IMG/VR virus record: IMGVR_UViG_2778261353_000005
Strand: one strand, 5' to 3'
DNA from: a virus
Lineage: Duplodnaviria; Heunggongvirae; Uroviricota; Caudoviricetes
DNA: 36,948 bases
Part shown: piece after piece, positions 997 to 32,828 of the stretch
Layout: each line of letters begins with the position of its first letter
Numbering within the stretch: the first letter of the stretch is position 1
Notes under the pieces: generated by a model
Database searches by the model: none
Seen by the model: the letters and a program-made list of their open reading frames with translations, nothing else
Told to the model about the DNA's origin: nothing
Made by a program: the position numbers and the translations under genes

Positions 997-1192
997 TACG
1001 TATCCTTATACCTGAAATCTTCGCAAGTATGCCTGGCCGCGAGATTATGGCACACTTGTCCGGTTAACTCTCGTCTCATACAGGTAACACAAACGTGAAA
1101 ATCCTTGTTGATGAAAAAAATGATGATTTAATTTATTGATATAAAAGGATTTATATCAGCACGTGTCCACGTAGTGACCACATTTTCGAGTT

Positions 1193-1263: not shown

Positions 1264-2157
1264 CTATTTCCAGTTACAAGCAGCTTGAAGTGGTTTTAGC
1301 GCGTTTGACAGGCCGTTTAAATTGAAAGTTGCACTTACAGGGCTCTCATTATAAGGAGTTATTTTTGTATACATTTTGTTTGAGTTGGCTAGTTTTCGGA
1401 TGAAATCAATGTCATTACCTTTATAAAAAACAGCCTTTGTATCTGTAGATACTAGCCAGTTTCGCTCAACTGCTTTCTGTTTATCAAGACGATAAAGCAT
1501 GCTGGTTTGTTCAAGGCCTAAATATACATCCCAACTAAGAAATACTTCGGTTTTCTTTTCTCGGCAAGCTATAAACAGAGTGGGAGTAACCGCTTCTCCA
1601 AATGGAGTTCTGATATAATCATCACTTTCTAACGATAAAATTACATTTTTCGAATCATCAATTGGCGATGTAGTAATGGATGTGTGCCATTTTCCTACAT
1701 CTGTGGCTTTCTCTAATTTTGATTCAGCTTGAACAGCTTTATCCTGTGGGAATAGTTTATCGTAGCAGTTTAGTCTGGCTTCTTTATCATTTTCTGCTCG
1801 GCATTTAGATATCTCAGAAAGATTTGGTTGCTGAGCCTCTGTTGTTACTGGCTTTTCCGTTTTAGATTTTGAGTTTACAGATGGAGTAAATGTTGGAGAA
1901 AAAAAACGATCATAACAAGATAAACGTCTGTCATCATCTTTCTCATCAGGGCATTGATCTCTGCTTTCGAATTTTTCAGCAACTTTCGTTCGAGTCGGTT
2001 GTATTGACTTATCGTAACAAGAAAGTCTGTCTTTATTATTTTCTATTGCTCGGCACTGGAGTACTGCATTGAAGTTATTATGTTCAGTTGCTGCGTGAAC
2101 AGGCAGTACACTAATTGATATAAATGATGCACCTATAGAAAAAATTATATTTTTCAT
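1264..2157 (-). CDS. Secreted protein with three Cys-containing repeats (C-x7-9-RLxCYD) and a ~150-aa C-terminal domain; function unknown
   Basis: 297-aa ORF; signal-peptide-like N-terminus ending VHA; repeats around RLSCYDK, RLSCYDR, RLNCYDK; AT-rich codon usage. Confidence 0.7.
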   Translation of the reverse strand: MKNIIFSIGASFISISVLPVHAATEHNNFNAVLQCRAIENNKDRLSCYDKSIQPTRTKVAEKFESRDQCPDEKDDDRRLSCYDRFFSPTFTPSVNSKSKTEKPVTTEAQQPNLSEISKCRAENDKEARLNCYDKLFPQDKAVQAESKLEKATDVGKWHTSITTSPIDDSKNVILSLESDDYIRTPFGEAVTPTLFIACREKKTEVFLSWDVYLGLEQTSMLYRLDKQKAVERNWLVSTDTKAVFYKGNDIDFIRKLANSNKMYTKITPYNESPVSATFNLNGLSNALKPLQAACNWK

Positions 2158-2161
2158 TTTG

Positions 2162-2494
2162 TTATCCTTTTGGTTTAGTAAGAAATACTAAAATTCCGAT
2201 AATGATATCGCCAATAACCCATAAACTTCCAATGGTAATTAAACCTAAGCCTGTACCAATAACTGCACCGGCTTTTTCGGCATCGGATGTAGCATTATTT
2301 ATTATTTCACTAGTGCCTCCCAGTCCAACTAAAAGCGTATAGATCATAAAAATATTAAATAATATAAATATCCACTTAATGAGCTTTCCAAAAAATGAAC
2401 GCTTAAGTTTTTTTATTTGTTTACCGCAAGCAGGGCAATACAATGCTGAATCGCTCACCTCTTTCTGGCATTCAGGACATTTGATTAATGCCAT
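2162..2494 (-). CDS. Zinc-ribbon (CPxC...CPxCG) membrane protein, likely co-transcribed with 1264..2157
   Basis: 110-aa ORF; N-terminal CPECQ-x11-CPACG then hydrophobic helices; stop 4 nt before downstream gene start. Confidence 0.65.
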   Translation of the reverse strand: MALIKCPECQKEVSDSALYCPACGKQIKKLKRSFFGKLIKWIFILFNIFMIYTLLVGLGGTSEIINNATSDAEKAGAVIGTGLGLITIGSLWVIGDIIIGILVFLTKPKG

Positions 2495-2755
2495 GTAATC
2501 CGCCTCCTTTGGATCAATACGAGTTGATATTTGTTACAAAACATTTTGATTTTATCAGATTTTTTTTTATTGATAAGTGTCAATTGATTAGCTGGTATAG
2601 AGTGAGACATATAGAAGGGCAGATCTGTATCAGTAGTGATGCAAAAATCCCACAGTTTCATGGAATTTTTGCATTTAGAGCCGTGAGATAGGGTGCCTTA
2701 TCGACCTTACCCTGGCAACCGATTGACGGGGGATTACTCCCCCGTCGCGGTTTCC

Positions 2756-2896
2756 TTACTGCTTACACTGTAAGAACGCCGCAAACTCCGCTCCCCAGAA
2801 ACTCATCCGTATTTCGCACAGCGAACCGTGCAACATCCAGATGATGAGGATTACCGTCACGCAGAACGTGATGGCTGTAAGCGATTTTTGCGACAT
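2756..2896 (-). CDS. Hok/Gef-family type I toxin-like small membrane peptide (46 aa)
   Basis: Hand-translated (below ORF-track size cut-off): MSQKSLTAITFCVTVILIIWMLHGSLCEIRMSFWGAEFAAFLQCKQ; AAGGAG 8 nt upstream; TM helix then SLCEIR...AAFLxCK as in Hok proteins; GC hairpin at about 2725..2746. Confidence 0.55.
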   Translation of the reverse strand: MSQKSLTAITFCVTVILIIWMLHGSLCEIRMSFWGAEFAAFLQCKQ

Positions 2897-3086
2897 AGCA
2901 CTTGCTCCTTTTCCGGAGAGGCGCTAACCTTTCACTTGCTTAGGGTAGACGGTTAGGGCCTCGGTTAAACAAAAGTGTTTTCCGGGGCCTTTCCACATCT
3001 GGCCTTCGGGTATTCCCTCCGACCATCAGCCGAAAGGCACCCGCGCGTAATCTATCGCTTTTTTGTTACTCCGGCAATTCTGCTTG

Positions 3087-3347
3087 TTAATTCTGAGGTA
3101 AAGGCAAACTCATCTGATTGTTTCCCCTGTGTGAAGCTGGTAGCTCATGCCACGGGATACCTTCTGAAGAGTGAACGCCGGAGGCGTGTTTCGATGTGAA
3201 TTTATGGAAAGCTTCCAGTGTTGAGAAGCATACGCCGCATTCCAGATTGTTACACTGGTAATACTTTTGCCGCACGGTGTTTGAATCATTTTCCGGACGA
3301 CTTGTGCGGATACGGGCAGATGCGCCACAAAGCGGACAACGGAACAT
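3087..3347 (-). CDS. ogr: Ogr/Delta-family zinc-finger late transcription activator
   Basis: 86 aa; MFRCPLCG...YYQCNNLECG gives C-x2-C-x22-C-x4-C as in P2 Ogr. Confidence 0.85.
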   Translation of the reverse strand: MFRCPLCGASARIRTSRPENDSNTVRQKYYQCNNLECGVCFSTLEAFHKFTSKHASGVHSSEGIPWHELPASHRGNNQMSLPLPQN

Positions 3348-3538: not shown

Positions 3539-4561
3539 ATGGGAAGAGATATAACGCTGTACCCTAAAAAAGCAACTAGAAACGAACTTAAAAATTACCT
3601 TGAAAATTTAGGTTTTAAAAGGTGTAAACATTTGTGGGAATGGCCCCAAGGAACGTTGAATTACTCTTGGTTTGATGATACGGACTTCAAATCTACAGAT
3701 GGAGTTTCGGCTGATATATATCCTGTTTCAAATGACGAATTACACATATCTGGTAATAAATGGGCATTGCATGTGCGTAATTTATATAGCGCTAGTTGGC
3801 ATGATGTAAAAATGCTTAATGATGTTCTAAAAGGCGCAAGGAGTCTTTTTGGTGGAACACTTATAGGTGATTATGGGAAAAATAGGTACGCTCCTCTATG
3901 GAAGGATTCTAGTAGTCCGATCAGTCGTGGCATTTCTTCAATATTTAATCATGTCCATCATGAGATTTCCGCTGTTAAACATGCCTTACCTGAACCTTCT
4001 ATTAAATTAAACCTACCGGAAGATGGCGGTTTATCCGAATACTTTGATTACATGCAATGTATGGATCCCAGTAGAGTTATATATAATGGATTAGTACCTT
4101 TTGCGGTTGCTATGTTTGAATACTTTTTCTCTAGAGCTTTTCAAATACTTATAAAGTACGATCCTTTCGCAATAGCAAAAAGAACATCGTATAAGCAAAA
4201 AGTTGATTTTGATATTCTGCTTGAGATAGAGAAAGGAAATATTTCAATAGAAAGTGTTATTGCAAGAAATTACACTTTTCAAAACTTAACCCACCTAAAC
4301 AAAGCATATAAAGAGTGGCTGGATATAGATGTGAGAGCGATTCTTTATAAGAAAAAAAGAATTGGAAAATCAGTTGATTTTCTTGAGAATCGAATTTCTG
4401 AAATCATACAATATAGACATGGGATAGTTCATCACTTTGAGTTGGATAGGACCTTAAATCGGGATGGATATATTCATATATTAGATGCGATAGAAAAAAG
4501 CATAATTGAATTTATCCATTACATAGAAGGCAAATACAAATTTAAATTAAATGCGTATTAA
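3539..4561 (+). CDS. AT-rich accessory (moron) gene, function unknown; possible HEPN-like C-terminal Rx4H motif
   Basis: 340-aa ORF of clearly lower GC than flanks, opposite strand to D and ogr; C-terminal ...ENRISEIIQYRHGIVHH... Confidence 0.7.
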   Translation: MGRDITLYPKKATRNELKNYLENLGFKRCKHLWEWPQGTLNYSWFDDTDFKSTDGVSADIYPVSNDELHISGNKWALHVRNLYSASWHDVKMLNDVLKGARSLFGGTLIGDYGKNRYAPLWKDSSSPISRGISSIFNHVHHEISAVKHALPEPSIKLNLPEDGGLSEYFDYMQCMDPSRVIYNGLVPFAVAMFEYFFSRAFQILIKYDPFAIAKRTSYKQKVDFDILLEIEKGNISIESVIARNYTFQNLTHLNKAYKEWLDIDVRAILYKKKRIGKSVDFLENRISEIIQYRHGIVHHFELDRTLNRDGYIHILDAIEKSIIEFIHYIEGKYKFKLNAY

Positions 4562-4681: not shown

Positions 4682-5791
4682 TCACTCTGTTTCTGCTATC
4701 CATTCCGGGATTTTTGCCTCAAGCTCAAGCTGTGTGGTAAAGCCGCTGTTATCAATGGTGTGCTCGGCTTTCGCAATAATCCAGTCCTGATTATCAATCT
4801 CGCTTTTAAATCCTGTTACCGTGCCATGCATTTCGGGGTAGAGTTCTGCACGTCCACGCACCAGCGTGATGGAAAATAATGCGGCTCCGCGTTGTAGCTG
4901 CTGCCACTTTGCCGCCGCTGCGCGTCTTGCTGCCTGCTCGTTCTGATAAGTCTTGCGTAACACAAACACATTGCCTTCCGCGCCTTCCATATAATCACCT
5001 TCACGGCTGCTGCTTTTCTCCTTTTTGGGTTTTGGCGGTTTGCGGCGTTTCACGCTGACTTTTTTCTTTTTCCCGTAATTAAGATCAAGCCAGTAAGCGC
5101 GTACCCCCGTATACGCCTCGCGGTCAGCAATGCGGAACTGATGGCGATCGCCGCTGCTGCGTGTGATGGCGAACGATGGCAACGGCTGGCCCTGTGCGTT
5201 CACGCCACCGCCGGGCATGATGAATAACAGATTACCGCTTTTTACCGTGGTGATTGCGCCCAGCATTTCCGCCATGCGCGTAAGGAAGGACATGTCGCTT
5301 TCTTCAGTCTGGTCGGCGTGGTCGATTTCGATATCCATCAGCATTTCGCTGATTTGCGGTTTCAGGCTGTACCGATGAGCGATGGCGGATACCACACGTT
5401 CAACGGTCACATCATGCCAGGACGCCTCACGTTTAACATTAAATTCATCCCGAAAATCTGCGCTTCTGGCTGAAACAGTCAGCCTGTCCGGCGGTCCTTC
5501 GTGAGCGATTTCATCAACAATGTAAGTGCCTTTTTCTGTCAGCGGTTCCCCTTTCCAGCCAATGAGAACCGTCAGGCGCGCGCCCCGTGGCGGTAGCTGC
5601 AACTGACCATCCGCATCATCCAGCGTGATGGTGAGCTGGTCCGCTTCAAATCCCCGGTTGTCGGTCAGTGACAGGCTCATCAGGCGCTCTGCCACGCCTG
5701 ACAGCGTTTTACCCTCCGCGAGAATATCAAAATCCGGCATTTTCACGGGGTCTGTGCCCTGACTGAGCAATTGCATGGTGGTATCGGTCAT
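4682..5791 (-). CDS. D: Late control / tail protein D
   Basis: Start placed at MTDTTMQLL; the ORF-track N-terminal 44 aa are R/S/P/T-rich and look non-coding; family assignment by recollection of P2 gpD. Confidence 0.8.
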   Translation of the reverse strand: MTDTTMQLLSQGTDPVKMPDFDILAEGKTLSGVAERLMSLSLTDNRGFEADQLTITLDDADGQLQLPPRGARLTVLIGWKGEPLTEKGTYIVDEIAHEGPPDRLTVSARSADFRDEFNVKREASWHDVTVERVVSAIAHRYSLKPQISEMLMDIEIDHADQTEESDMSFLTRMAEMLGAITTVKSGNLLFIMPGGGVNAQGQPLPSFAITRSSGDRHQFRIADREAYTGVRAYWLDLNYGKKKKVSVKRRKPPKPKKEKSSSREGDYMEGAEGNVFVLRKTYQNEQAARRAAAAKWQQLQRGAALFSITLVRGRAELYPEMHGTVTGFKSEIDNQDWIIAKAEHTIDNSGFTTQLELEAKIPEWIAETE

Positions 5792-5948
5792 CTGTTCCCT
5801 CCCTGTGCGGCATGGTCGCATGTGCGTGCGGAGGGGGTTACTGCTTTTTGTTGTCGCCGTGGCGGGAGAACGGCGCAGGGGTGAGATTACGCGCGTGGTG
5901 GGTGATGATTGTTGCCGAATCATTTAACGGATACAAGGGGCTGAAGCT

Positions 5949-7133
5949 ATGAGTGAAACTCGTTTTCATGGTGCCCGTGTTACGGAAAATACCGACCTGG
6001 TAACAGCGATTAACGATGTTGATTCCAGCGTTATCGGTATCGTGGCAACGGCGGATGATGCGGACGCGAAGCTGTTCCCGCTGAACAAGCCCACACTGCT
6101 GACCCGCGTCAATGACGTGCTGGGAAAATGCGGGACAACGGGGACGCTTTATCGTGCGCTTAAGGCCATCGCAGACCAGGTGAGCACAAAGGTGATCGTC
6201 GTTCGCGTGGCTGAACACAAAGAAGAAGACGGAAAGACGCAGGATCAACTGGTTATCGGTGGTTCTGAGGATGACGGCAGCTATACGGGGATGTATGCGC
6301 TGCTTGTTGCAGAGCAGGATGAAAGCATCGGATACCGTCCGCGTATTCTGGCCGCGCCGGAGCTGGACACGGAGGCTGTAACAAAATCCCTGTGCGTGAT
6401 TGCAGGTAAACTGCGCGCGTTTGTGTATGCCTCATGTCACGGCTGTAACACGATGGCTGAGGCGATTACCTACCGCCAGAAATTCAACGAACGTGAGGTG
6501 ATGCTCTTATGGCCGGACTTCATCGCCTACAACCCGAAAAGTGGCAAAAACGAAACGTTCCCCGCGTCTGCCTATGCGTGCGGCCTTCGTGCGTACATTG
6601 ACCATGAGCAGGGATGGCACAAATCACTGTCCAACGTTCCGGTTAAAAATGTGCTGGGGATGTCGAGGCATGTGTTCTGGTCGTTGCAGGCCGAAGACAG
6701 CGATGCCAACAGCCTCAACAACAAAGAAATCACGACCATTATTCGTCGCAACGGGTTCCGCTTCTGGGGCAACCGCACACCGGAAACGAACGCCTACATC
6801 TTTGAGGTGTATACCCGAACCGCACAGGTGCTGGCTGATTCAATTGCGGAAGCGCAGTTTGAAACCATCGACAGTCCACTGACGCCTGCGAACGTGAAGG
6901 ATGTTATCAGTGCCATCAGGGCAAAACTGGATTCACTGGTGACTGCCGGGAAACTGATTGGCGCGTCGTGCTGGTATGACGTGGTGGATAACAGCACCAC
7001 GGATTTACGTCAGGGGCGTGTGCGTATTCGCTACAAATATACGCCAGTTCCTCCGCTGGAAGATATGGAGCTTTACCAGACGTTTACTGATGAATACTTT
7101 GATCCCGCATTTGCGGTGCTGGGAGGTGTCTGA
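5949..7133 (+). CDS. FI: Contractile tail sheath protein
   Basis: 394 aa; conserved blocks FPLNKP, LRAF, WPDF, DHEQGWHK, IRRNGFRFWGNRT, YTPVPPLE as in P2 FI. Confidence 0.9.
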   Translation: MSETRFHGARVTENTDLVTAINDVDSSVIGIVATADDADAKLFPLNKPTLLTRVNDVLGKCGTTGTLYRALKAIADQVSTKVIVVRVAEHKEEDGKTQDQLVIGGSEDDGSYTGMYALLVAEQDESIGYRPRILAAPELDTEAVTKSLCVIAGKLRAFVYASCHGCNTMAEAITYRQKFNEREVMLLWPDFIAYNPKSGKNETFPASAYACGLRAYIDHEQGWHKSLSNVPVKNVLGMSRHVFWSLQAEDSDANSLNNKEITTIIRRNGFRFWGNRTPETNAYIFEVYTRTAQVLADSIAEAQFETIDSPLTPANVKDVISAIRAKLDSLVTAGKLIGASCWYDVVDNSTTDLRQGRVRIRYKYTPVPPLEDMELYQTFTDEYFDPAFAVLGGV

Positions 7134-7645
7134 TGGCTGTACCAAAACATCTTCGCTTTTTTACGCTGTTTGTGAATGGTGAAAACGAAGTGGGTAAGGT
7201 GACGTCCGTCACTCCACCTAAACTGACGCGCAAAACTGAAAGCTATCGTGGCGGTGGCATGATGGGGGCGGTGAGTATCGACCTCGGTCTTGACGACTCC
7301 GCGCTTGATGCGAGTTTTGTCATGGGGGGCGCAGTTCGTGAGCTGTTCCTTAAATATGGCGGCACGATTGACGGCACGTTGCTGCGTTTTGCGGGTGAAT
7401 ACTACACTGATGCAGAAAGCGATCTGTATGAAATCGAGATGCGCGGGCGTGTGACGGAAATTGATATGGGGGAAGCCAAACAGGGCGAAGCCACATCACA
7501 CACTTATGCTGTCAAAAACACCTACTACAAGCTGAGCGTTAACGATCGTCCGCTGTGGGAAATCGACCTGCTGAACCACATCTACCGGAAGGACGGCAAG
7601 GACATCGTGCCTGATCGCATCCGTTCCGCGCTTGGGCTTGGCTGA
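7133..7645 (+). CDS. FII: Tail tube protein
   Basis: 170 aa; ATG overlaps FI stop; position and size as P2 FII. Confidence 0.85.
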   Translation: MAVPKHLRFFTLFVNGENEVGKVTSVTPPKLTRKTESYRGGGMMGAVSIDLGLDDSALDASFVMGGAVRELFLKYGGTIDGTLLRFAGEYYTDAESDLYEIEMRGRVTEIDMGEAKQGEATSHTYAVKNTYYKLSVNDRPLWEIDLLNHIYRKDGKDIVPDRIRSALGLG

Positions 7646-7701
7646 TAAGTAATATGCAGGCGGCGCAGTGCGTCGCCTCTGACTGAAAAAGGAGACAACT
7701 G

Positions 7702-8076
7702 ATGCAAAACATCAATACTGAAACCCAGAATAACGCCGTGGCGGATGATGTGACGGCAGGTGAGGATATGGCTGTCGAACGTGGCGTAAAACTGGCCCGA
7801 CCAATTGAGCGCGGTGGCGAAAAAATCACGTATGTGGAAATTACCGGGGCTATTGAGCAGGCTGGATCTCTGCGTGGTCTGTCGCTTTCTGATGTGCTGA
7901 ATCTGAAAGCGGATACCATGTTCACGCTGTTGCCTCGCGTGACCTCGCCACGACTGGATGAAGTGATGATTAAAAAAATGTCGTCACGCGATTTTATTCA
8001 GTTGTGCGCTGTGGCTGTAAATTTTATGAGCGAGCCAGACTCTGGCGCGAAGAGCGTGCAGGAGACGGCAGCGTAA
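7702..8076 (+). CDS. E: Tail assembly chaperone E
   Basis: AGGAG 7 nt upstream of ATG; SLRGLSLSDVL...LLPRVTSP resembles P2 gpE. Confidence 0.8.
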   Translation: MQNINTETQNNAVADDVTAGEDMAVERGVKLARPIERGGEKITYVEITGAIEQAGSLRGLSLSDVLNLKADTMFTLLPRVTSPRLDEVMIKKMSSRDFIQLCAVAVNFMSEPDSGAKSVQETAA

Positions 8077-8240
8077 TCACCCTGGTGTGCTTTGAGCACA
8101 TCGAAGATCTGGTGGCGGATATTGCCGCCATTTTTAACTGGTCGCCCGCCGAAATCTTCATGATGACGCCCGGCGAAGTGGTTAGCTGGCGTGAGCGGGC
8201 GGCACTTCGCAGCGGGAATGCAGACAATGAAGACTCTTGA
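7702..8240 (+). CDS. E': E+E' fusion by programmed -1 ribosomal frameshift
   Basis: -1 frame ORF (8004..8240) overlaps the E 3' end; slippery heptamer A_AAT_TTT at 8019..8025 in the E zero frame. Confidence 0.7.
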
Positions 8241-11034
8241 TATCCGGGTCGCTTTCAGCGCCGTTGACAGACTGACCCGGCCTGCCGAAAACGCCCGCCG
8301 CCTGATGGGGCAGTTTGGTGACTCCATCCAGCGAACGCAGGGGGCGATCAAAAATCTCGAGCGTCAGGCGCGTTCATTTGAGCGCGCCCGTGACGCTGTC
8401 AGTAAAGCGGATGCGGGCATCGTGAAAGCACGACGCCAGCTTAACGCCCTTAATCAGTTACAACGCACGGGTACAGTGCTCAGCGAAAAACAACAAAAGC
8501 TGATGCAGCAGTTAAGCACCCGGCTTGAACGCCTGAATGAATCGCGCACACGGGAAATTCAGAAAATGCGGGAGCTTGGCGGAGAGCTGAAACGCCACGG
8601 CATTTCCCTGACAGGCAGCGATAACACCATCCAGCAGGCCATCAGACGCACCGAACAGTACAACAACCAGCTTGAACGCGAACGGCAGACGCTTGCGCGT
8701 GTAACGCGGGCGCGTGAGCGGTATTCGCGAGCGCAGGAAACTGCTGGAAAACTGAAAACAGGTGGTGCGCTGGCAATTGGTGCGGCAGCGGCTGGCGGCT
8801 ATGCTGCCGGGCGTTTTTTGCAGCCTGCGATCGGGTTCGGGAAAGAGATGTCCCGCGTTCAGGCACTGACGCGAATCGACCAGAACAGCCCACAGTTTAA
8901 GGCGCTGCGTGAGCAGGCGTTAAAACTTGGCTCTGAAACGCAGTTCACCGCAGGTGATGCCGCCAGTGGACAGGCATTTCTTGCAATGGCTGGCTTCACA
9001 CCACAGGCCATTCAGGCTGCGCTCCCTGGCGTACTGAGCATGGCAACGGCTGGCGGTATGGACCTCGGTGAGACGGCGGATATTGGCTCAAATATTCTGA
9101 CGCAGTTCGGTCTTTCTGCTGACCAGATGGACCGGGTCGGCGACACACTCACCGCAGCGTTTACCCGTACCAACACTGACCTTCGCGCACTGGGTGAAAC
9201 CATGAAATATGCAGGTCCGGTGGCGGGTAAGCTGGGAATATCGCTGGAGCAGGCCGCAGCGATGGCAGGCGTGCTGGCGAATATGGGTATCAGGGGGAGT
9301 GATGCCGGGACGGCAATGCGTGCCAGCCTGGCTCGTCTGGCATCACCGCCAAAGGCGGCAGCAGAGGCGCTGAAAGAGCTGGGCGTGTCTGTCTCGGATG
9401 CCGGGGGCAAAATGCGCCCGATGGAGGATGTGCTGGCCGACCTTTATAAAGCCACCCGCAAATACGGGGAAGTTGACCGGGTATCGTTCTTTAAGGACAT
9501 TGCCGGAGAAGAGGCTTTCACATCGTTTATGGCGCTCGTTGATGCAGCGGGTGACGGTTCCTTACCCAAACTGAGAAAAGAACTTGAAGGCGCGCGCGGT
9601 GAGGCTGAACGCACAGCAAAGGTTATGGCCAACAACCTTGACGGCGATCTGAAATCACTCGGCAGTGCATGGGAAGGGTTGCGCATCCGCATTGCAGATC
9701 TGATTGACGGTCCGCTGCGTTCTGTCACGCAGTGGCTCACGCGAGTGGTCTCAAAGGTGACGGCGCTGGCGCAGGCCCATCCCGCACTGACGCGCCAGCT
9801 ACTGATAGCAGGCGGTGCGTTGCTGGCAATGACTGCAACGGTTGGCTCGTTGTCGCTGGCTATTGGTGTGCTTGCTGGCCCGCTGGCAAAACTGCGTCTT
9901 GGTTTTTCTCTCCTGACCGGATCAATGAATGCTGTCAGGGTCCTGCCAGCACTATGGGGAATGGTGACGGGTTCCGTTTCTTTACTGGGAGGCGCTATCG
10001 GGGCGCTGTTCAGTCCGGTCGGGTTGATTGCTGCAGCGTTTGTCGCTGCGGCGGTTCTCATCTGGAAATACTGGGAACCCATCAAGGCGTTTTATGCCGG
10101 GGTGTTCAGTGGGATTATGGAGCGACTGGCCCCGTTGCGCGAAACCTTTGAACGGTTTGGCCCTGTTTTTGACGCAATCGGAAGCGGGATCAGCCAGGTG
10201 TTTAACTGGTTTAAATCGCTGCTGTCACCAATGGAGTCCAGCAAGGAAACGCTGGATAAATGTACCAGTGCTGGCGAGATATTCGGTAACGTTCTTGGCG
10301 GTGCGTTACAGCTTGTTCTGACACCTGCAAAAATGCTACTGGATACGCTGGCGTGGATACTTGAAAAACTTGGCGTCCTTCCGGATGAAGCGGAAAAGGC
10401 GCGCAAGAAAATCGAAGACGCACAGCGTGCGGCCATTCTTCAGGACAAGGTTGCCTTGCTTCAGGGGGACCTTGCGAAAATCAATCCGCCGAAGCCTGTG
10501 GAAAATGGCAATGGCACCGGAGGTGATAAACCCAAAGACAACAAACCGCTCACAGACAGCAATACCGGTACGCTACGCAGACTCAGCAAAATTGCTGATA
10601 ACACAGGTAAGCTGGTTGATGAGACGAAAAAACGCATTGGCCCCGGCGATATTGTCTTTAAGAACCTGCCCCGCGCACTTGCTGTTCGTGGGGAGTGGCA
10701 GGAGCGGAAGATTGCGCAGGTCAGTAAGCCTGCTTCCGCAATCAACATCACACCCGTGGTCCCGACTCCTCTGCCTCCGGCGCTGGTCCCTGTTGTTGCG
10801 GCCAGCTCCCGCCCGGTGGCGGAGGCCATACGATCGCCAGTGGCATCAGTTCCTGCAGCTTCCCGTAATCGGGAGCCTGCTGTCTCCGGATTTGGCGGTG
10901 AAATTCATGTTCATCTGCATAACGTTGTTACGCAGAATCCCCGCGAACTGGCGAAACTGGTCGGTGAAATGGTCAGGGCAGAGATGGAACGGCGCGCCCG
11001 TGCCGGACGTGGCAGTTTTTACGATAAAGATTGA
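8218..11034 (+). CDS. T: Tail tape measure protein
   Basis: About 938 aa from first in-frame ATG (MQTMKTL); coiled-coil N-terminal half, Gly/Ala-rich hydrophobic middle; sits between E' and U. Confidence 0.9.
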   Translation: MQTMKTLDIRVAFSAVDRLTRPAENARRLMGQFGDSIQRTQGAIKNLERQARSFERARDAVSKADAGIVKARRQLNALNQLQRTGTVLSEKQQKLMQQLSTRLERLNESRTREIQKMRELGGELKRHGISLTGSDNTIQQAIRRTEQYNNQLERERQTLARVTRARERYSRAQETAGKLKTGGALAIGAAAAGGYAAGRFLQPAIGFGKEMSRVQALTRIDQNSPQFKALREQALKLGSETQFTAGDAASGQAFLAMAGFTPQAIQAALPGVLSMATAGGMDLGETADIGSNILTQFGLSADQMDRVGDTLTAAFTRTNTDLRALGETMKYAGPVAGKLGISLEQAAAMAGVLANMGIRGSDAGTAMRASLARLASPPKAAAEALKELGVSVSDAGGKMRPMEDVLADLYKATRKYGEVDRVSFFKDIAGEEAFTSFMALVDAAGDGSLPKLRKELEGARGEAERTAKVMANNLDGDLKSLGSAWEGLRIRIADLIDGPLRSVTQWLTRVVSKVTALAQAHPALTRQLLIAGGALLAMTATVGSLSLAIGVLAGPLAKLRLGFSLLTGSMNAVRVLPALWGMVTGSVSLLGGAIGALFSPVGLIAAAFVAAAVLIWKYWEPIKAFYAGVFSGIMERLAPLRETFERFGPVFDAIGSGISQVFNWFKSLLSPMESSKETLDKCTSAGEIFGNVLGGALQLVLTPAKMLLDTLAWILEKLGVLPDEAEKARKKIEDAQRAAILQDKVALLQGDLAKINPPKPVENGNGTGGDKPKDNKPLTDSNTGTLRRLSKIADNTGKLVDETKKRIGPGDIVFKNLPRALAVRGEWQERKIAQVSKPASAINITPVVPTPLPPALVPVVAASSRPVAEAIRSPVASVPAASRNREPAVSGFGGEIHVHLHNVVTQNPRELAKLVGEMVRAEMERRARAGRGSFYDKD

Positions 11035-11040
11035 GGAGTC

Positions 11041-11535
11041 ATGGTCATGATGATGATCTACGGCATGTTTGTTTTTGAGCTGCGCACACTGCCGCATCAG
11101 CAGTTACAGCAAAACAAAAGCTGGCGGCATGTGAAAAATGAACGCGTTAACCGTTCAGCAAGCTGGCAGTATATCGGTGCAGGTGATGATCGCATCGTGC
11201 TTTCCGGCGTGCTTTATCCTGAAATTACAGGTGGTGAAGTGTCGCTTTCGTTACTGACCACGCAGGCATATACAGGACGCCCCTGGCCTCTGATTGATGG
11301 TGTCGGGCAGATTTACGGCATGTATGTGCTGACTGAAACGAATACGACCCGTTCCGAGTTTGATCGCTACGGTAAGGCGAAAAAGATAGAATTTTCACTG
11401 ACTCTTGAACGCTGTGATGAGGATTTGCGGGAGCGCCTGCAATCCTCATCATTCAGCGATATGCTGTCCGGCTTCAAAGATAAGGTGACATCATCTCTTA
11501 ACAGCGCGGCCAGTTCAGTTAAAGGGCTGTTCTGA
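11041..11535 (+). CDS. U: Tail protein U
   Basis: 164 aa; ...QQLQQNKSWRHVKNERVNRSASWQYIGAGDD... matches P2 gpU. Confidence 0.85.
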   Translation: MVMMMIYGMFVFELRTLPHQQLQQNKSWRHVKNERVNRSASWQYIGAGDDRIVLSGVLYPEITGGEVSLSLLTTQAYTGRPWPLIDGVGQIYGMYVLTETNTTRSEFDRYGKAKKIEFSLTLERCDEDLRERLQSSSFSDMLSGFKDKVTSSLNSAASSVKGLF

Positions 11536-11546
11536 TTTAACACAAA

Positions 11547-11572
11547 AACCGCTAATGGTCAGATTAGCGGTT
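11547..11572. terminator. Bidirectional intrinsic terminator between convergent U and invertase genes
   Basis: aaccgctaat-ggtcag-attagcggtt hairpin with T-rich flank on both strands. Confidence 0.55.
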
Positions 11573-12158
11573 ATTTTGTTTCCTGACTCTTCTCAATTGT
11601 TCCGCTTGATTCTCCTGCGAGGTGGTAACGATAAATCGTCGATATACCAATGCCGTAAATTATTGCCAGTTGTTTTCTGTCGTGCCCGTTTTTGATCAGC
11701 CTTGCTATTTGCTCATGCTGTTCTTTTGTCAGCTTCGGGCGACGTCCGCCTGTGCGCCCCCGTGCGCGCGCTGCCGCCAGTCCGGCCAGTGTGCGTTCAA
11801 CAATTAATTCACGTTCCATTTCTGCTAAAGCTCCCATGACGTGAAAAAAGAAACGCCCCATGGGTGTTGATGTGTCAATGCTGTCCGTCAGGCTACGGAA
11901 ATTAACACCTTTTTCCCGCAATTCCTCAATAAGCGTGATCAGGTGTTTCATACTCCTGCCCAGCCTGTCCAGCTTCCAGACAACCAGCGTATCTCCTTCT
12001 GATAGCGTTCTGAGCAGTTTTTTCAATCCCGGTCTGGCTGATTTCGTTCCGCTGATTTTATCTTCAAAAATCAGTTCACATCCTGCGCACTCCAGCGCGT
12101 TACGCTGCAATTCCGTGTTCTGGTCATTTGTTGATACGCGAACATAACCAATAAGCAT
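11571..12158 (-). CDS. Serine DNA invertase (Gin/Pin/Cin/Hin family)
   Basis: Near-identity to Gin-type invertases over the catalytic N-terminus (MLIGYVRVSTNDQ..., VWKLDRLGRSMKHL, MGRFFFHVMGALAEMERELI) and C-terminal HTH. Confidence 0.9.
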   Translation of the reverse strand: MLIGYVRVSTNDQNTELQRNALECAGCELIFEDKISGTKSARPGLKKLLRTLSEGDTLVVWKLDRLGRSMKHLITLIEELREKGVNFRSLTDSIDTSTPMGRFFFHVMGALAEMERELIVERTLAGLAAARARGRTGGRRPKLTKEQHEQIARLIKNGHDRKQLAIIYGIGISTIYRYHLAGESSGTIEKSQETK

Positions 12159-12214
12159 GAGCATCCCCCTGAATAAAAACCGGAGATGATGCCAGTTACC
12201 CGTTATCTCTGCAT

Positions 12215-12240
12215 TTTCACAAATGTTGGTTTAGGAGAAG
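12215..12240. repeat. Invertase crossover site (gix/cix-like), left boundary of invertible fibre segment
   Basis: ttggtttaggagaag at 12226..12240 is the reverse complement of cttctcctaaaccaa at 14108..14122; AAACC..GGTTT-type core. Confidence 0.7.
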
Positions 12241-12731
12241 GCTCAGCATTGCCTGTTGGCGTACCTGTTCCGTGGCCCTCAGCCACTCCGCCAACAGGCT
12301 GGCTGAAATGCAACGGAGCAGCTTTTTCTGCTGAAGAATACCCGGAACTGGCAAAGGCTTACCCGACAAATAAATTGCCTGATTTACGCGGTGAATTTAT
12401 TCGCGGCTGGGATGACGGGCGTGGGGTTGATTCGGGCCGAACTATATTGAACTCTCAGGGAGATGCAATCAGAAATATCACGGGGACAATTGGTGCAAGG
12501 CATGAAATATCAGCACTGTATTTTTTTGGCAATGGCTCTGGTGCATTTTTTGGGAATGATGAGGGAATGTATGATTCCGTTGTGATAAAAGCTGAATCTA
12601 CAGGTAAGTCATCAGTTTCTATGACAGATCGTCATATTTACGCTAATTTGGATGTCTCAAGAGTTGTTCCTACAGCGACAGAAAACAGACCTCGTAATAT
12701 TGCATTCAACTACATCGTGAGGGCGGCATAA
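12232..12731 (+). CDS. Alternative (currently silent) tail-fibre C-terminal segment, expressed only after inversion
   Basis: No credible independent start; frame runs through the crossover site encoding GLGE, the same tetrapeptide at the crossover in H; fibre-tip-like sequence. Confidence 0.65.
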
Positions 12732-13348
12732 TGCGCGAGGATACCATGAATACAGTCACACTGAATGAGGCCCTACTGGCGACTGTCGCGGGTGAAGTCG
12801 TCATATACAACTACGACAGCAAGACGCGGGAATATCTTTCCACATCAACTGAATATCTTGCGGTTGGCGTCGGCATCCCGGCATGTTCTTGTTTAGATGC
12901 ACCAGTTACACATAAAGCTGGTTATGCAATCTGCCGTTCTGCAGATTTTAACTCATGGGAATATGTGCCAGACCATCGCGGTGAAATCATCTATAGCACC
13001 GAAACAGGAGAATCGAAAGAAATCACAGCTCTGGGTGATTACCCTGAAAATACAACCACTATCGCCCCGTTAACGCCATATGATAAATGGGATGGTGAGA
13101 AATGGGTGACGAATACTGAGGCACAGCATAGCGCCGCAGTAGAAGCGGCAGAAGCACAGCGCCAGTCACTGATTGATGCAGCAATGGCTTCCATCAGTCT
13201 GATTCAACTGAAATTACAGGCCGGACGGAAGCTGACGCAGGCAGAAAACACCCGTCTAAACGCTGTGCTGGATTACATTGATGCGGTGACGGCAACAGAT
13301 ACCAGAACCGCGCCGGATGTCATCTGGCCTGAACTGCCGGAGGCGTAG
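12731..13348 (+). CDS. Tail fibre assembly protein (alternative copy inside invertible segment)
   Basis: 205 aa; ATG overlaps preceding stop (TAATG); C-terminal DYIDAVTATDT...PDVIWPELP parallels the convergent tfa copy. Confidence 0.75.
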   Translation: MREDTMNTVTLNEALLATVAGEVVIYNYDSKTREYLSTSTEYLAVGVGIPACSCLDAPVTHKAGYAICRSADFNSWEYVPDHRGEIIYSTETGESKEITALGDYPENTTTIAPLTPYDKWDGEKWVTNTEAQHSAAVEAAEAQRQSLIDAAMASISLIQLKLQAGRKLTQAENTRLNAVLDYIDAVTATDTRTAPDVIWPELPEA

Positions 13349-32506: not shown

Positions 32507-32685
32507 GGTGTGGCCCCTTGTGTAGTAAGTTGTGAAAACTCACCATCCAGAGCTGCGAAACTGTGGGTGGCGAGACGTACGAGGTTCGCAGTACCGGCTA
32601 CACAAGAACCCGGCCCGACCGAAGTCGGCCCCGTACGCCCCGCCATAATTCTGACGCGAAAAAAACGTGGCAATACAGTACGCAC

Positions 32686-32706
32686 AAAAAAACCGCTGGC
32701 GCGGTT
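32686..32706 (-). terminator. Possible intrinsic terminator/attenuator inside the early-operon noncoding island
   Basis: Minus strand aaccgc-gcca-gcggtt hairpin followed by TTTTTTT. Confidence 0.35.
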
Positions 32707-32828
32707 GTGCGCTTGTGTAGTCAGCAGGCTGCGAAACCCGGCACCCGTTTTGTGAGGTGCAGCGGAAATGTAACCTGACTGATTGCGGCATGGCAAGCGG
32801 TTTTTTTGTGTGTGCATGTTCTGGTTTC

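Follow-up and report, generated by a model that had tools for sequence, protein, structure and literature searches.

The window analysed here, a 36,948-nucleotide stretch of E. coli DNA, almost certainly carries a Hok-family type I locus as prophage cargo. The explanation that best accounts for the locus is, taken as a whole statement, likely to be correct: a hok/sok-type cassette of about 390 bp would be the accessory cargo of a P2-like prophage seated in the 5´ end of pdxB, and would be governed by an RNA switch in the style of plasmid R1. The functional unit extends from the -35 hexamer at position 3077 to the end of the fbi box at 2691. The span of 2700-3086 proposed by the first-pass annotation was nearly right, with both of its ends now moved to these positions.

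The toxin gene and its ribosome-binding site were located as follows:

2756..2896, minus strand: hok coding sequence, 46 codons encoding 46 amino acids, taken from the list of open reading frames.
2905..2910, minus strand: hok Shine–Dalgarno (SD) sequence AAGGAG, 8 nt ahead of the ATG, read from the sequence.

The translation of 2756..2896 is MSQKSLTAITFCVTVILIIWMLHGSLCEIRMSFWGAEFAAFLQCKQ, a peptide with one N-terminal membrane helix and a C-terminus that reads SLCEIR...AAFLQCKQ. The Pfam profile HOK_GEF (PF01848) matches it with 30.1 bits (E 3.7e-7, cut-off 22), aligning peptide residues 7-44 with positions 5-42 of the 42 in the profile. The literature names M1, C, T, LCE and E as the Hok residues with more than 80% conservation, and the window peptide has every one of them, as M1, C12, T14, L26-C27-E28 and E37; its second C-terminal cysteine is C44. 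The best NCBIfam match is HokA (NF007290), at 35.8 bits against an equivalog cut-off of 89, a threshold that the peptide does not reach; the NCBIfam Hok subfamily gives 23.6 bits, well under its cut-off. Across five diverged copies all 46 codons are retained and dN/dS is 0-0.62, with five synonymous and no non-synonymous differences between the window and phage P88. The window peptide is a Hok/Gef family member under purifying selection.

These results support the first-pass annotation in its 46-residue open reading frame with a strong SD sequence and in its assignment to the Hok toxins, which is backed by the HOK_GEF score, the RefSeq label and the Rfam leader match described below. A lack of Hok similarity on search, together with no transcript or toxicity, had been named there as the outcome that counts against this assignment, and the search returned HOK_GEF above its curated cut-off. 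The frame had been called unannotated, which is incorrect: RefSeq already holds it as WP_000078920.1, “Hok/Gef family protein”. Two plus-strand open reading frames that lie over the hok locus, 2828-2956 and 2841-2927, are unsupported.

The closest named paralogue is HokA of E. coli K-12, with 43% identity over 47 residues. Both peptides share the MxQK start, WM, SLCE and AAFLxCK. In HokA, as in the window hok, both cysteines are directly encoded, and no RNA editing is therefore needed. HokA differs in its genomic site, on the E. coli K-12 chromosome, and in having an annotated mokA pseudogene.

Existing records already cover the gene, the family to which it belongs and its enrichment in prophages; the feature is common, annotated and catalogued. 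The exact peptide is alignment entry 1628 in Hok cluster 72 of Escalera-Maurer et al. 2026 (bioRxiv 10.1101/2025.08.07.668861). Two variants of it, 72_1621 (V15A, one residue) and 72_1589 (the Stx-phage form), were cloned among the 45 homologues tested in that study; toxicity in E. coli was reported for 42 of the 45, and neither variant is among the three non-toxic ones (bioRxiv 10.1101/2025.08.07.668861). The catalogue does not describe the location of the gene between ogr and att. The 397-nt locus was matched in 1750 of 5426 complete genomes, and the contiguous hok–ogr pair is present in 1179 of the 5426 complete E. coli genomes (about a fifth).

The leader of the gene was recognized by Rfam below its curated threshold. 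At gathering thresholds, Rfam reported nothing at the hok locus. At an E-value threshold, RF01794 (“sok”) matched 2883-3042 on the minus strand from end to end (model positions 1-157), with 51.9 bits (E 1.2e-10) against a gathering score of 59. Four further cluster-72 loci scored 42-51 bits on the same model. A control R1-type plasmid locus, which encodes a Hok identical to R1 Hok, gave 87.2 bits; the match is on the hok-sense strand and covers the stretch between the mRNA start and the hok ATG, so that RF01794 represents the hok leader and not Sok. The curated threshold of RF01794 misses the present hok lineage. The covariance-model search suggested by the first-pass annotation has in this way yielded a full-length match with a score that falls short of the gathering value.

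The elements that were assigned to the promoters, to the hok mRNA and to its antisense RNA are listed below:

3049..3077, minus strand: putative hok promoter, with -35 TTGCCG at 3077-3072, a 17-nt spacer and -10 TAGATT at 3054-3049.
2688..3042, minus strand: full-length hok mRNA of about 355 nt with an approximate 3´ end, placed by the Rfam leader start at 3042, Stx-phage homology and the fold.
3034..3042, minus strand: tac element, 5´ GGGUGCCUU, with partners at 2699-2691 in the full-length fold and at 2994-2984 in the 3´-trimmed fold.
2984..2994, minus strand: ucb-like box GGAAAGGCCCC, the alternative tac partner after 3´ trimming in the predicted fold.
2957..2962, minus strand: GAGGCC, the positional counterpart of the R1 mok SD sequence in the R1-type alignment, without a following start codon.
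2915..2924, minus strand: dcb-like box GCGCCUC (2924-2918) overlapping the anti-SD sequence CUCUCC (2920-2915), from the folds.
2725..2746, minus strand: 3´ GC hairpin of 9 bp directly past the stop codon, GACGGGGGA/UCCCCCGUC, from the fold and a terminator scan.
2691..2699, minus strand: fbi element AAGGCACCC, the 3´ partner of tac, from the fold.
2902..2930, plus strand: putative Sok promoter, with -35 TTGCTC at 2902-2907, a 17-nt spacer and -10 TAACCT at 2925-2930.
2937..2992, plus strand: putative Sok antisense RNA of about 55 nt, consisting of an unpaired 5´ tail and then a hairpin at 2955-2991.

A scan for consensus sigma-70 promoters found no site on either strand of the locus, and the putative hok and Sok promoters are proposed from positional homology. 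The hexamers of the hok promoter are conserved in the five-locus alignment, with the same spacing to +1 (predicted at G3042) as in the R1-type locus. The homology of the window to the Stx-phage copies covers 2691-3063.

For the 355-nt RNA spanning 3042-2688 the folding energy is -160.1 kcal/mol, compared with -117.3 +/- 6.1 in dinucleotide shuffles (z = -7.0), and none of 100 shuffles folds as well, in agreement with the structured leader seen in the first-pass annotation. The tac/fbi pairing forms the closing helix of the minimum-energy fold, in which nucleotides 1-15 pair with the 3´ end; the hok RNA, as modelled, shows the 5´–3´ end pairing that is a hallmark of the Hok family. In this full-length fold, the CUCC of the anti-SD sequence CUCUCC (2920-2915) pairs with the GGAG of the hok SD sequence. 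The dcb-like/anti-SD region, GGTTAGCGCCTCTC, is unchanged in five loci. The GC hairpin that had also been noticed 3´ of the gene is located at 2746-2725 on the minus strand. It is the only terminator-like stem within 2600-3150, its terminator score comes solely from the plus strand, on which it has a T-rich tail, and it is probably the limit of 3´ trimming.

When the fbi element is removed (fold of 3042-2722), tac switches to 2994-2984. The GAGGCC at 2962-2957, which pairs with ucb in the full-length fold, then pairs with 2922-2918: the trimmed fold joins GAGGC (2962-2958) to GCCUC (2922-2918) and leaves the SD sequence mostly unpaired.

Both structures were examined in a set of five loci with 75-100% identity. 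The full-length structure is paired in 89.7% of cells (39-45% with slid partners), with 16 pairs changed on both sides, and the 3´-trimmed structure in 92.3% (40-44% with slid partners), with 13 pairs changed on both sides; these and the following pair figures are biased in favour of the structures, because both were drawn from a single member of the alignment. The tac/fbi helix is 81% paired across the five loci despite misalignment at the 3´ end, the GAGGC/GCCUC helix is 94.5% paired in the trimmed structure, and four of the nine pairs of the 3´ hairpin change on both sides. The tac/ucb helix has 12 pairs that are 100% paired and do not vary among the five loci, and it contributes no covariation signal. 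The copies on an E. albertii plasmid and in CP043018 were left out of this set as decayed pseudogenes, which are uninformative.

On the opposite strand, a Sok-type antisense promoter and hairpin can be placed, putatively, at positions homologous to those of R1. The position, spacing and strand of the promoter match the R1-type TTGCGC-17-TATCCT, and the complement of its -10 hexamer, AGGTTA, is invariant in five loci. The Sok-type RNA folds at -23.8 kcal/mol (z = -3.1) and is complementary to nucleotides +51 to +106 of the hok mRNA.

The locus resembles hok/sok of plasmid R1 (the parB locus) in its Hok/Gef peptide with an LCE motif; in an mRNA predicted to be locked by tac/fbi and, once its 3´ end is trimmed, to form a tac/ucb helix together with a GAGG.../...GCCUC hairpin; in a putative antisense promoter with 17-nt spacing that overlaps the hok translation start region; and in a GC hairpin past the stop codon. 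The R1 tac/fbi pair, GGCGCUU/AAGCGCC, is a different sequence, equally self-complementary and in the same places. Further differences are found in the length of the peptide (46 residues in the window, 52 in R1), in the distance from the SD sequence to the ATG (8 nt, which is better than the 11 nt of the R1-type locus), in the RF01794 leader score (52 bits compared with 87 for the R1-type locus), in the location (prophage in the window, plasmid in R1) and in the mok frame, which is present in the R1 locus and absent from the window locus.

A sequence of events can be proposed from R1 homology (PMC9841398) and folding. A weak promoter (3077-3049) would give rise to a stable mRNA of about 355 nt, closed by tac/fbi end pairing and with CUCUCC paired to its hok ribosome-binding site. 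The fbi element would be lost as the 3´ end is slowly trimmed as far as the hairpin at 2746-2725, and the freed 5´ end (tac) would pair with GGAAAGGCCCC at 2994-2984. The GAGGCC at 2962-2957, released by this exchange, would capture GCGCCUC (2924-2918) and loosen the block on the hok ribosome-binding site. A short, unstable Sok transcribed from the opposite strand (about 2937-2992) would pair with +51 to +106 of the mRNA, which should reverse the activating refolding and make the duplex accessible to RNase III. Hok would be made only once Sok synthesis stops, and would then insert into the inner membrane and collapse it. With no mok, the effect of Sok is probably exerted on RNA structure and decay, and not by way of a blocked leader peptide.

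If the locus is functional, its role would be somewhat more probably than otherwise prophage addiction and/or abortive defence against other phages at transcription shut-off, the two being taken jointly and as a rough share of the functional reading. According to a citation in the hokW-sokW literature, R1 hok/sok reduces the plating of T4. PADLOC gave no defence-system match for hok or its neighbours.

The absence of mok is the main departure from this scheme to be weighed. Hok synthesis in R1 depends strictly on mok being translated as far as the hok SD sequence (PMC9841398). A frame starting with ATG, GTG or TTG and entering the hok SD/start region was found neither in the window nor in four relatives. 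The position of the R1 mok AUG reads AAG in the window locus, and an in-frame UAG (2926-2924) is invariant in five intact copies. The mok-equivalent frame is open across the hok start and has no start codon. Frames that begin at an upstream AUG at +45 vary in length and terminate between +49 and +119, before the SD sequence. Other candidate leader frames, of 24 residues (2924-2998) and 28 residues (2940-3026), together with a GUG-AAA-GGU-UAG mini-frame, were rejected as unconserved among relatives. Since R1 needs mok translation and the window has no such frame, native translation of the window hok can be regarded only as putative.

The strongest rival explanation takes this absence at face value: having lost mok, the locus would be a translationally silent relic, with a hok that cannot be translated from its own mRNA and that persists by hitch-hiking on prophages. 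The missing frame and the invariant UAG agree with such a relic, as do the requirement for mok in R1, the reported inability of chromosomal E. coli hok loci to mediate post-segregational killing and the existence of decayed plasmid copies, one with a stop at codon 2 and one frameshifted. However, a silent gene is hard to reconcile with exactly 46 codons kept under the dN/dS values given above and with an SD spacing better than that of the R1-type locus, nor does it account for RNA switch elements that are invariant or change in a compensatory manner. The distribution of the cassette also speaks against it. Related copies with 75-95% DNA identity occur in at least four genomic contexts: P2-like phages have them between ogr and att, a lambdoid prophage between gpJ and a tail-fibre gene, Stx phages beside lom, and O157 beside ykgM and the ure island. 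In each of these four settings the homology runs from the -35 hexamer to just beyond the fbi box, and the mobile unit coincides exactly with the functional hok locus. A silent relic is for these reasons considered unlikely.

Instead, a functional, mok-independent variant, with Sok acting on RNA folding and decay, is favoured, because the peptide is under purifying selection despite the absent mok frame. In its full extent, the proposal would be that cluster 72 is a phage-borne Hok lineage without mok that has kept the tac/fbi, ucb, SD-like and dcb boxes, and in which Sok steers refolding and RNase III decay as a mok-independent variant of the classic mechanism; this broader claim is offered tentatively, with doubt weighing more than assent. 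If the missing mok is functionally real, one of the commonest E. coli hok lineages would work without the leader-peptide coupling of R1; this single departure from the R1 scheme is a minor lead. Only coding sequences are treated in the catalogue of Escalera-Maurer et al., which explicitly leaves Mok, Sok and mRNA structure undefined (bioRxiv 10.1101/2025.08.07.668861). A literature search found no prior statement on mok-less hok loci, which is not proof that none exists.

A second rival explanation holds that the window locus is the hokW-sokW of Stx phages, speeding lysis on induction. The hokW-sokW system of Sakai prophage 5 (Sp5) is likewise a prophage-borne hok-family type I system, the only one tested for a role in the phage life cycle, and it raises the release of Sp5 phage about two-fold (PMC8621323). 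This explanation is encouraged by RefSeq phage records, which label the window frame “MokW-like host killing”, and by Stx phages that carry a copy with 82% DNA identity. Nevertheless, identity with hokW-sokW was rejected on the basis of the published primers (PMC8621323): HokW is a different, Gef/HokC-like peptide of 51 residues (MKQQKAM...DYESEK), and the hokW leader (GCGGGTGCTTGAGGCTATCTGCC) differs from that of the window hok. The Stx-phage relative of the window hok is itself a separate 46-residue gene beside lom. The label “MokW-like” is a transferred name only and is misleading, the frame not being the hokW that was studied. It is accordingly very improbable that the two loci are the same. 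Help with lysis on induction, by analogy with hokW-sokW, is a possible role for the window hok, to which a rather low rough share of the functional reading may be given.

The prophage boundary and the neighbouring genes bear on the status of hok as cargo, and were placed as follows:

1098..1117: attR core AAAATCCTTGTTGATGAAAA, the true prophage/host junction, in the first codons of pdxB (start GTG at 1096).
1264-2157, minus strand: VasI/TagO-like cargo protein (Pfam VasI, 89.6 bits).
2162-2494, minus strand: zinc-ribbon membrane protein, cargo (Pfam Zn_Ribbon_1, 31.2 bits).
3087..3347, minus strand: ogr/delta-type zinc-finger late activator (Pfam Ogr_Delta, 52.4 bits).

The window begins at flk. 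A search for direct repeats inside the window gave nothing useful, the int-side att copy being located beyond the window end, and the att sites were solved through the int flank of strain B7A together with comparison with empty sites. In the B7A lysogen pdxB comes after int, and a second copy of the AAAATCCTTGTTGATGAAAA 20-mer directly precedes pdxB, about 180 nt past the int stop. Among the matches listed with flk and pdxB adjacent, homology to the empty site ends at 1117. The end of empty-site homology and the identical 20-mer beyond int beside pdxB place attR at 1098-1117. The first codons of pdxB are thus the integration site of the phage, all sequence to the right of 1117 is prophage, and attR is some 1.6 kb to the left of hok. 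The first-pass annotation had put hok where attR should be, which is contradicted by this distance, while its suggestion to locate the att sites by comparison with an empty site led to the 20-nt core at both places.

Phage records give further support to the inclusion of hok in the prophage. Two of them are bounded close to window position 1118, each to within about 20 nt: the PhiR44_2 record (host E. coli C) has its end there and the record of Citrobacter phage Shae_phiSM its start, and both contain hok and the two genes to its left. In P88, whose record is circular, about 0.85 kb separates hok from int, with the origin of the record between them. Phage 500465-2, which is 100% identical to the window here, was rejected as evidence of packaging: the host genes flk, yfcJ and fabB are part of its record, a sign of loose prophage borders.

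The remaining rival explanation, in which hok is host DNA or a separate resident islet beside which the phage inserted, so that hok marks attR, can draw on the position of hok as the last recognisable module at the ogr end, on the AT-rich, foreign-looking DNA to its left and on the end of P88 homology at 2709, just left of hok, but it is already contradicted, and extremely improbable, given that empty flk/pdxB sites contain none of the sequence to the right of 1117, that the att core is repeated at 1098-1117 and beside pdxB, that the 303 genomes matching across the filled left junction correspond to the 282-319 that carry this int, that the PhiR44_2 and Shae_phiSM records are bounded near 1118 with hok and both neighbours inside, and that P88 has hok so close to int.

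Of the two options left by the first-pass annotation, junctional cargo or the locus of integration, the first holds, with the module present in the P88, PhiR44_2 and Shae_phiSM records, and the second is refuted. The hok gene is cargo in the 2-kb interval from ogr to att, with the VasI/TagO-like and zinc-ribbon genes between it and attR. The region of these two genes (1264..2494) is AT-rich, with 32-39% GC. At the other side, ogr adjoins the locus, its stop codon being 10 nt from the hok -35 hexamer, which agrees with the earlier placement of the locus at the ogr end of the prophage. For annotation, the value of these results is that the prophage ends at 1098-1117 in pdxB, and not at hok.

The assignment of the prophage to the P2-like group (Peduoviridae) was judged by an Ogr/Delta activator, Cox, a C-type repressor, a tyrosine integrase, gpD and tail genes, and a duplicated att core. 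The Pfam families Ogr_Delta, Phage_Cox, Phage_integrase and Phage_GPD were found, together with the 20-nt att core at both ends, and the window is 92-100% identical to Peduoviridae records over the stretches compared.

The R1-type control clarified what the Rfam model RF01794, named "sok antitoxin", describes. The control was matched on the hok-sense strand, from the 5' end of the mRNA to the hok ATG, and on this ground RF01794 is a model of the hok leader rather than of the Sok RNA. All five copies of the hok lineage carried by the prophage, at 42-52 bits, fell short of its gathering score.

The R1-type locus of an IncFII plasmid variant (NZ_CP128973.1, positions 345-403 of the extracted locus) has the mok ATG 57 nt 5' of the hok ATG, in contrast to the 58 nt of R1 proper. 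Because the offset is 57 nt, mok is in frame with hok, and so Mok, as read from the sequence, would be a Hok protein extended at its N terminus. The PGAP annotation of this mok covers only a 33-codon fragment. The plasmid copies of the prophage hok lineage (pEA5_1 of E. albertii and CP043018.1 of E. coli) are decayed, one by a stop at codon 2 together with a deletion and the other by a frameshift, with the leaders of both still recognisable.

The prophage integrates at the very start of the pdxB coding sequence, within its first codons (start codon GTG, 1096; site 1096-1117, and 6232-6260 in locus L002), and the 5' end of the gene is rebuilt from phage DNA in lysogens. PGAP starts the lysogen pdxB at a downstream ATG, giving a gene of 1113 nt. 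Of the 5426 complete genomes of E. coli, about 300 are occupied at this site.

Other features of the prophage are as follows.

1264-2494, minus strand: gene for a VasI/TagO-like protein and gene for a 110-aa zinc-ribbon membrane protein, AT-rich, between hok and attR
3539-4561, plus strand: 340-aa ORF in an island of 31-38% GC between ogr and gpD
11571-13348: Hin/Gin-type serine invertase (197 aa; Resolvase, 175.9 bits) and adjoining ORFs of opposite orientation
32563-32760, minus strand: C4 antisense RNA and isrK, next to each other within the early region

The VasI/TagO-like protein (Pfam VasI, 89.6 bits) has a T6SS accessory domain, for which a phage is an odd setting; its gene is frameshifted in strain H1. 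The 340-aa ORF, absent from P88, looks like a second cargo gene and is possibly a defence gene. It gave a weak RiboL-PSP-HEPN match (22.5 bits, under the threshold of 28.4) and no match in PADLOC.

The F operon of P2 is single and co-directional, whereas here gpD and ogr lie on the minus strand and the sheath, tube, E, tape-measure and U genes (5949-11535) on the plus strand (region 4682-11535). Since P88 and strain H1 share this opposed arrangement, it is characteristic of the phage group rather than an artefact of assembly. Further along, the invertase adjoins oppositely oriented ORFs beside what are presumably tail-fibre genes, which suggests an invertible host-range segment. Finally, C4 (83.2 bits) and isrK (64.1 bits), both gathering-level Rfam matches, form an immunity RNA pair of the P1/P7 type, here in a P2-like genome.
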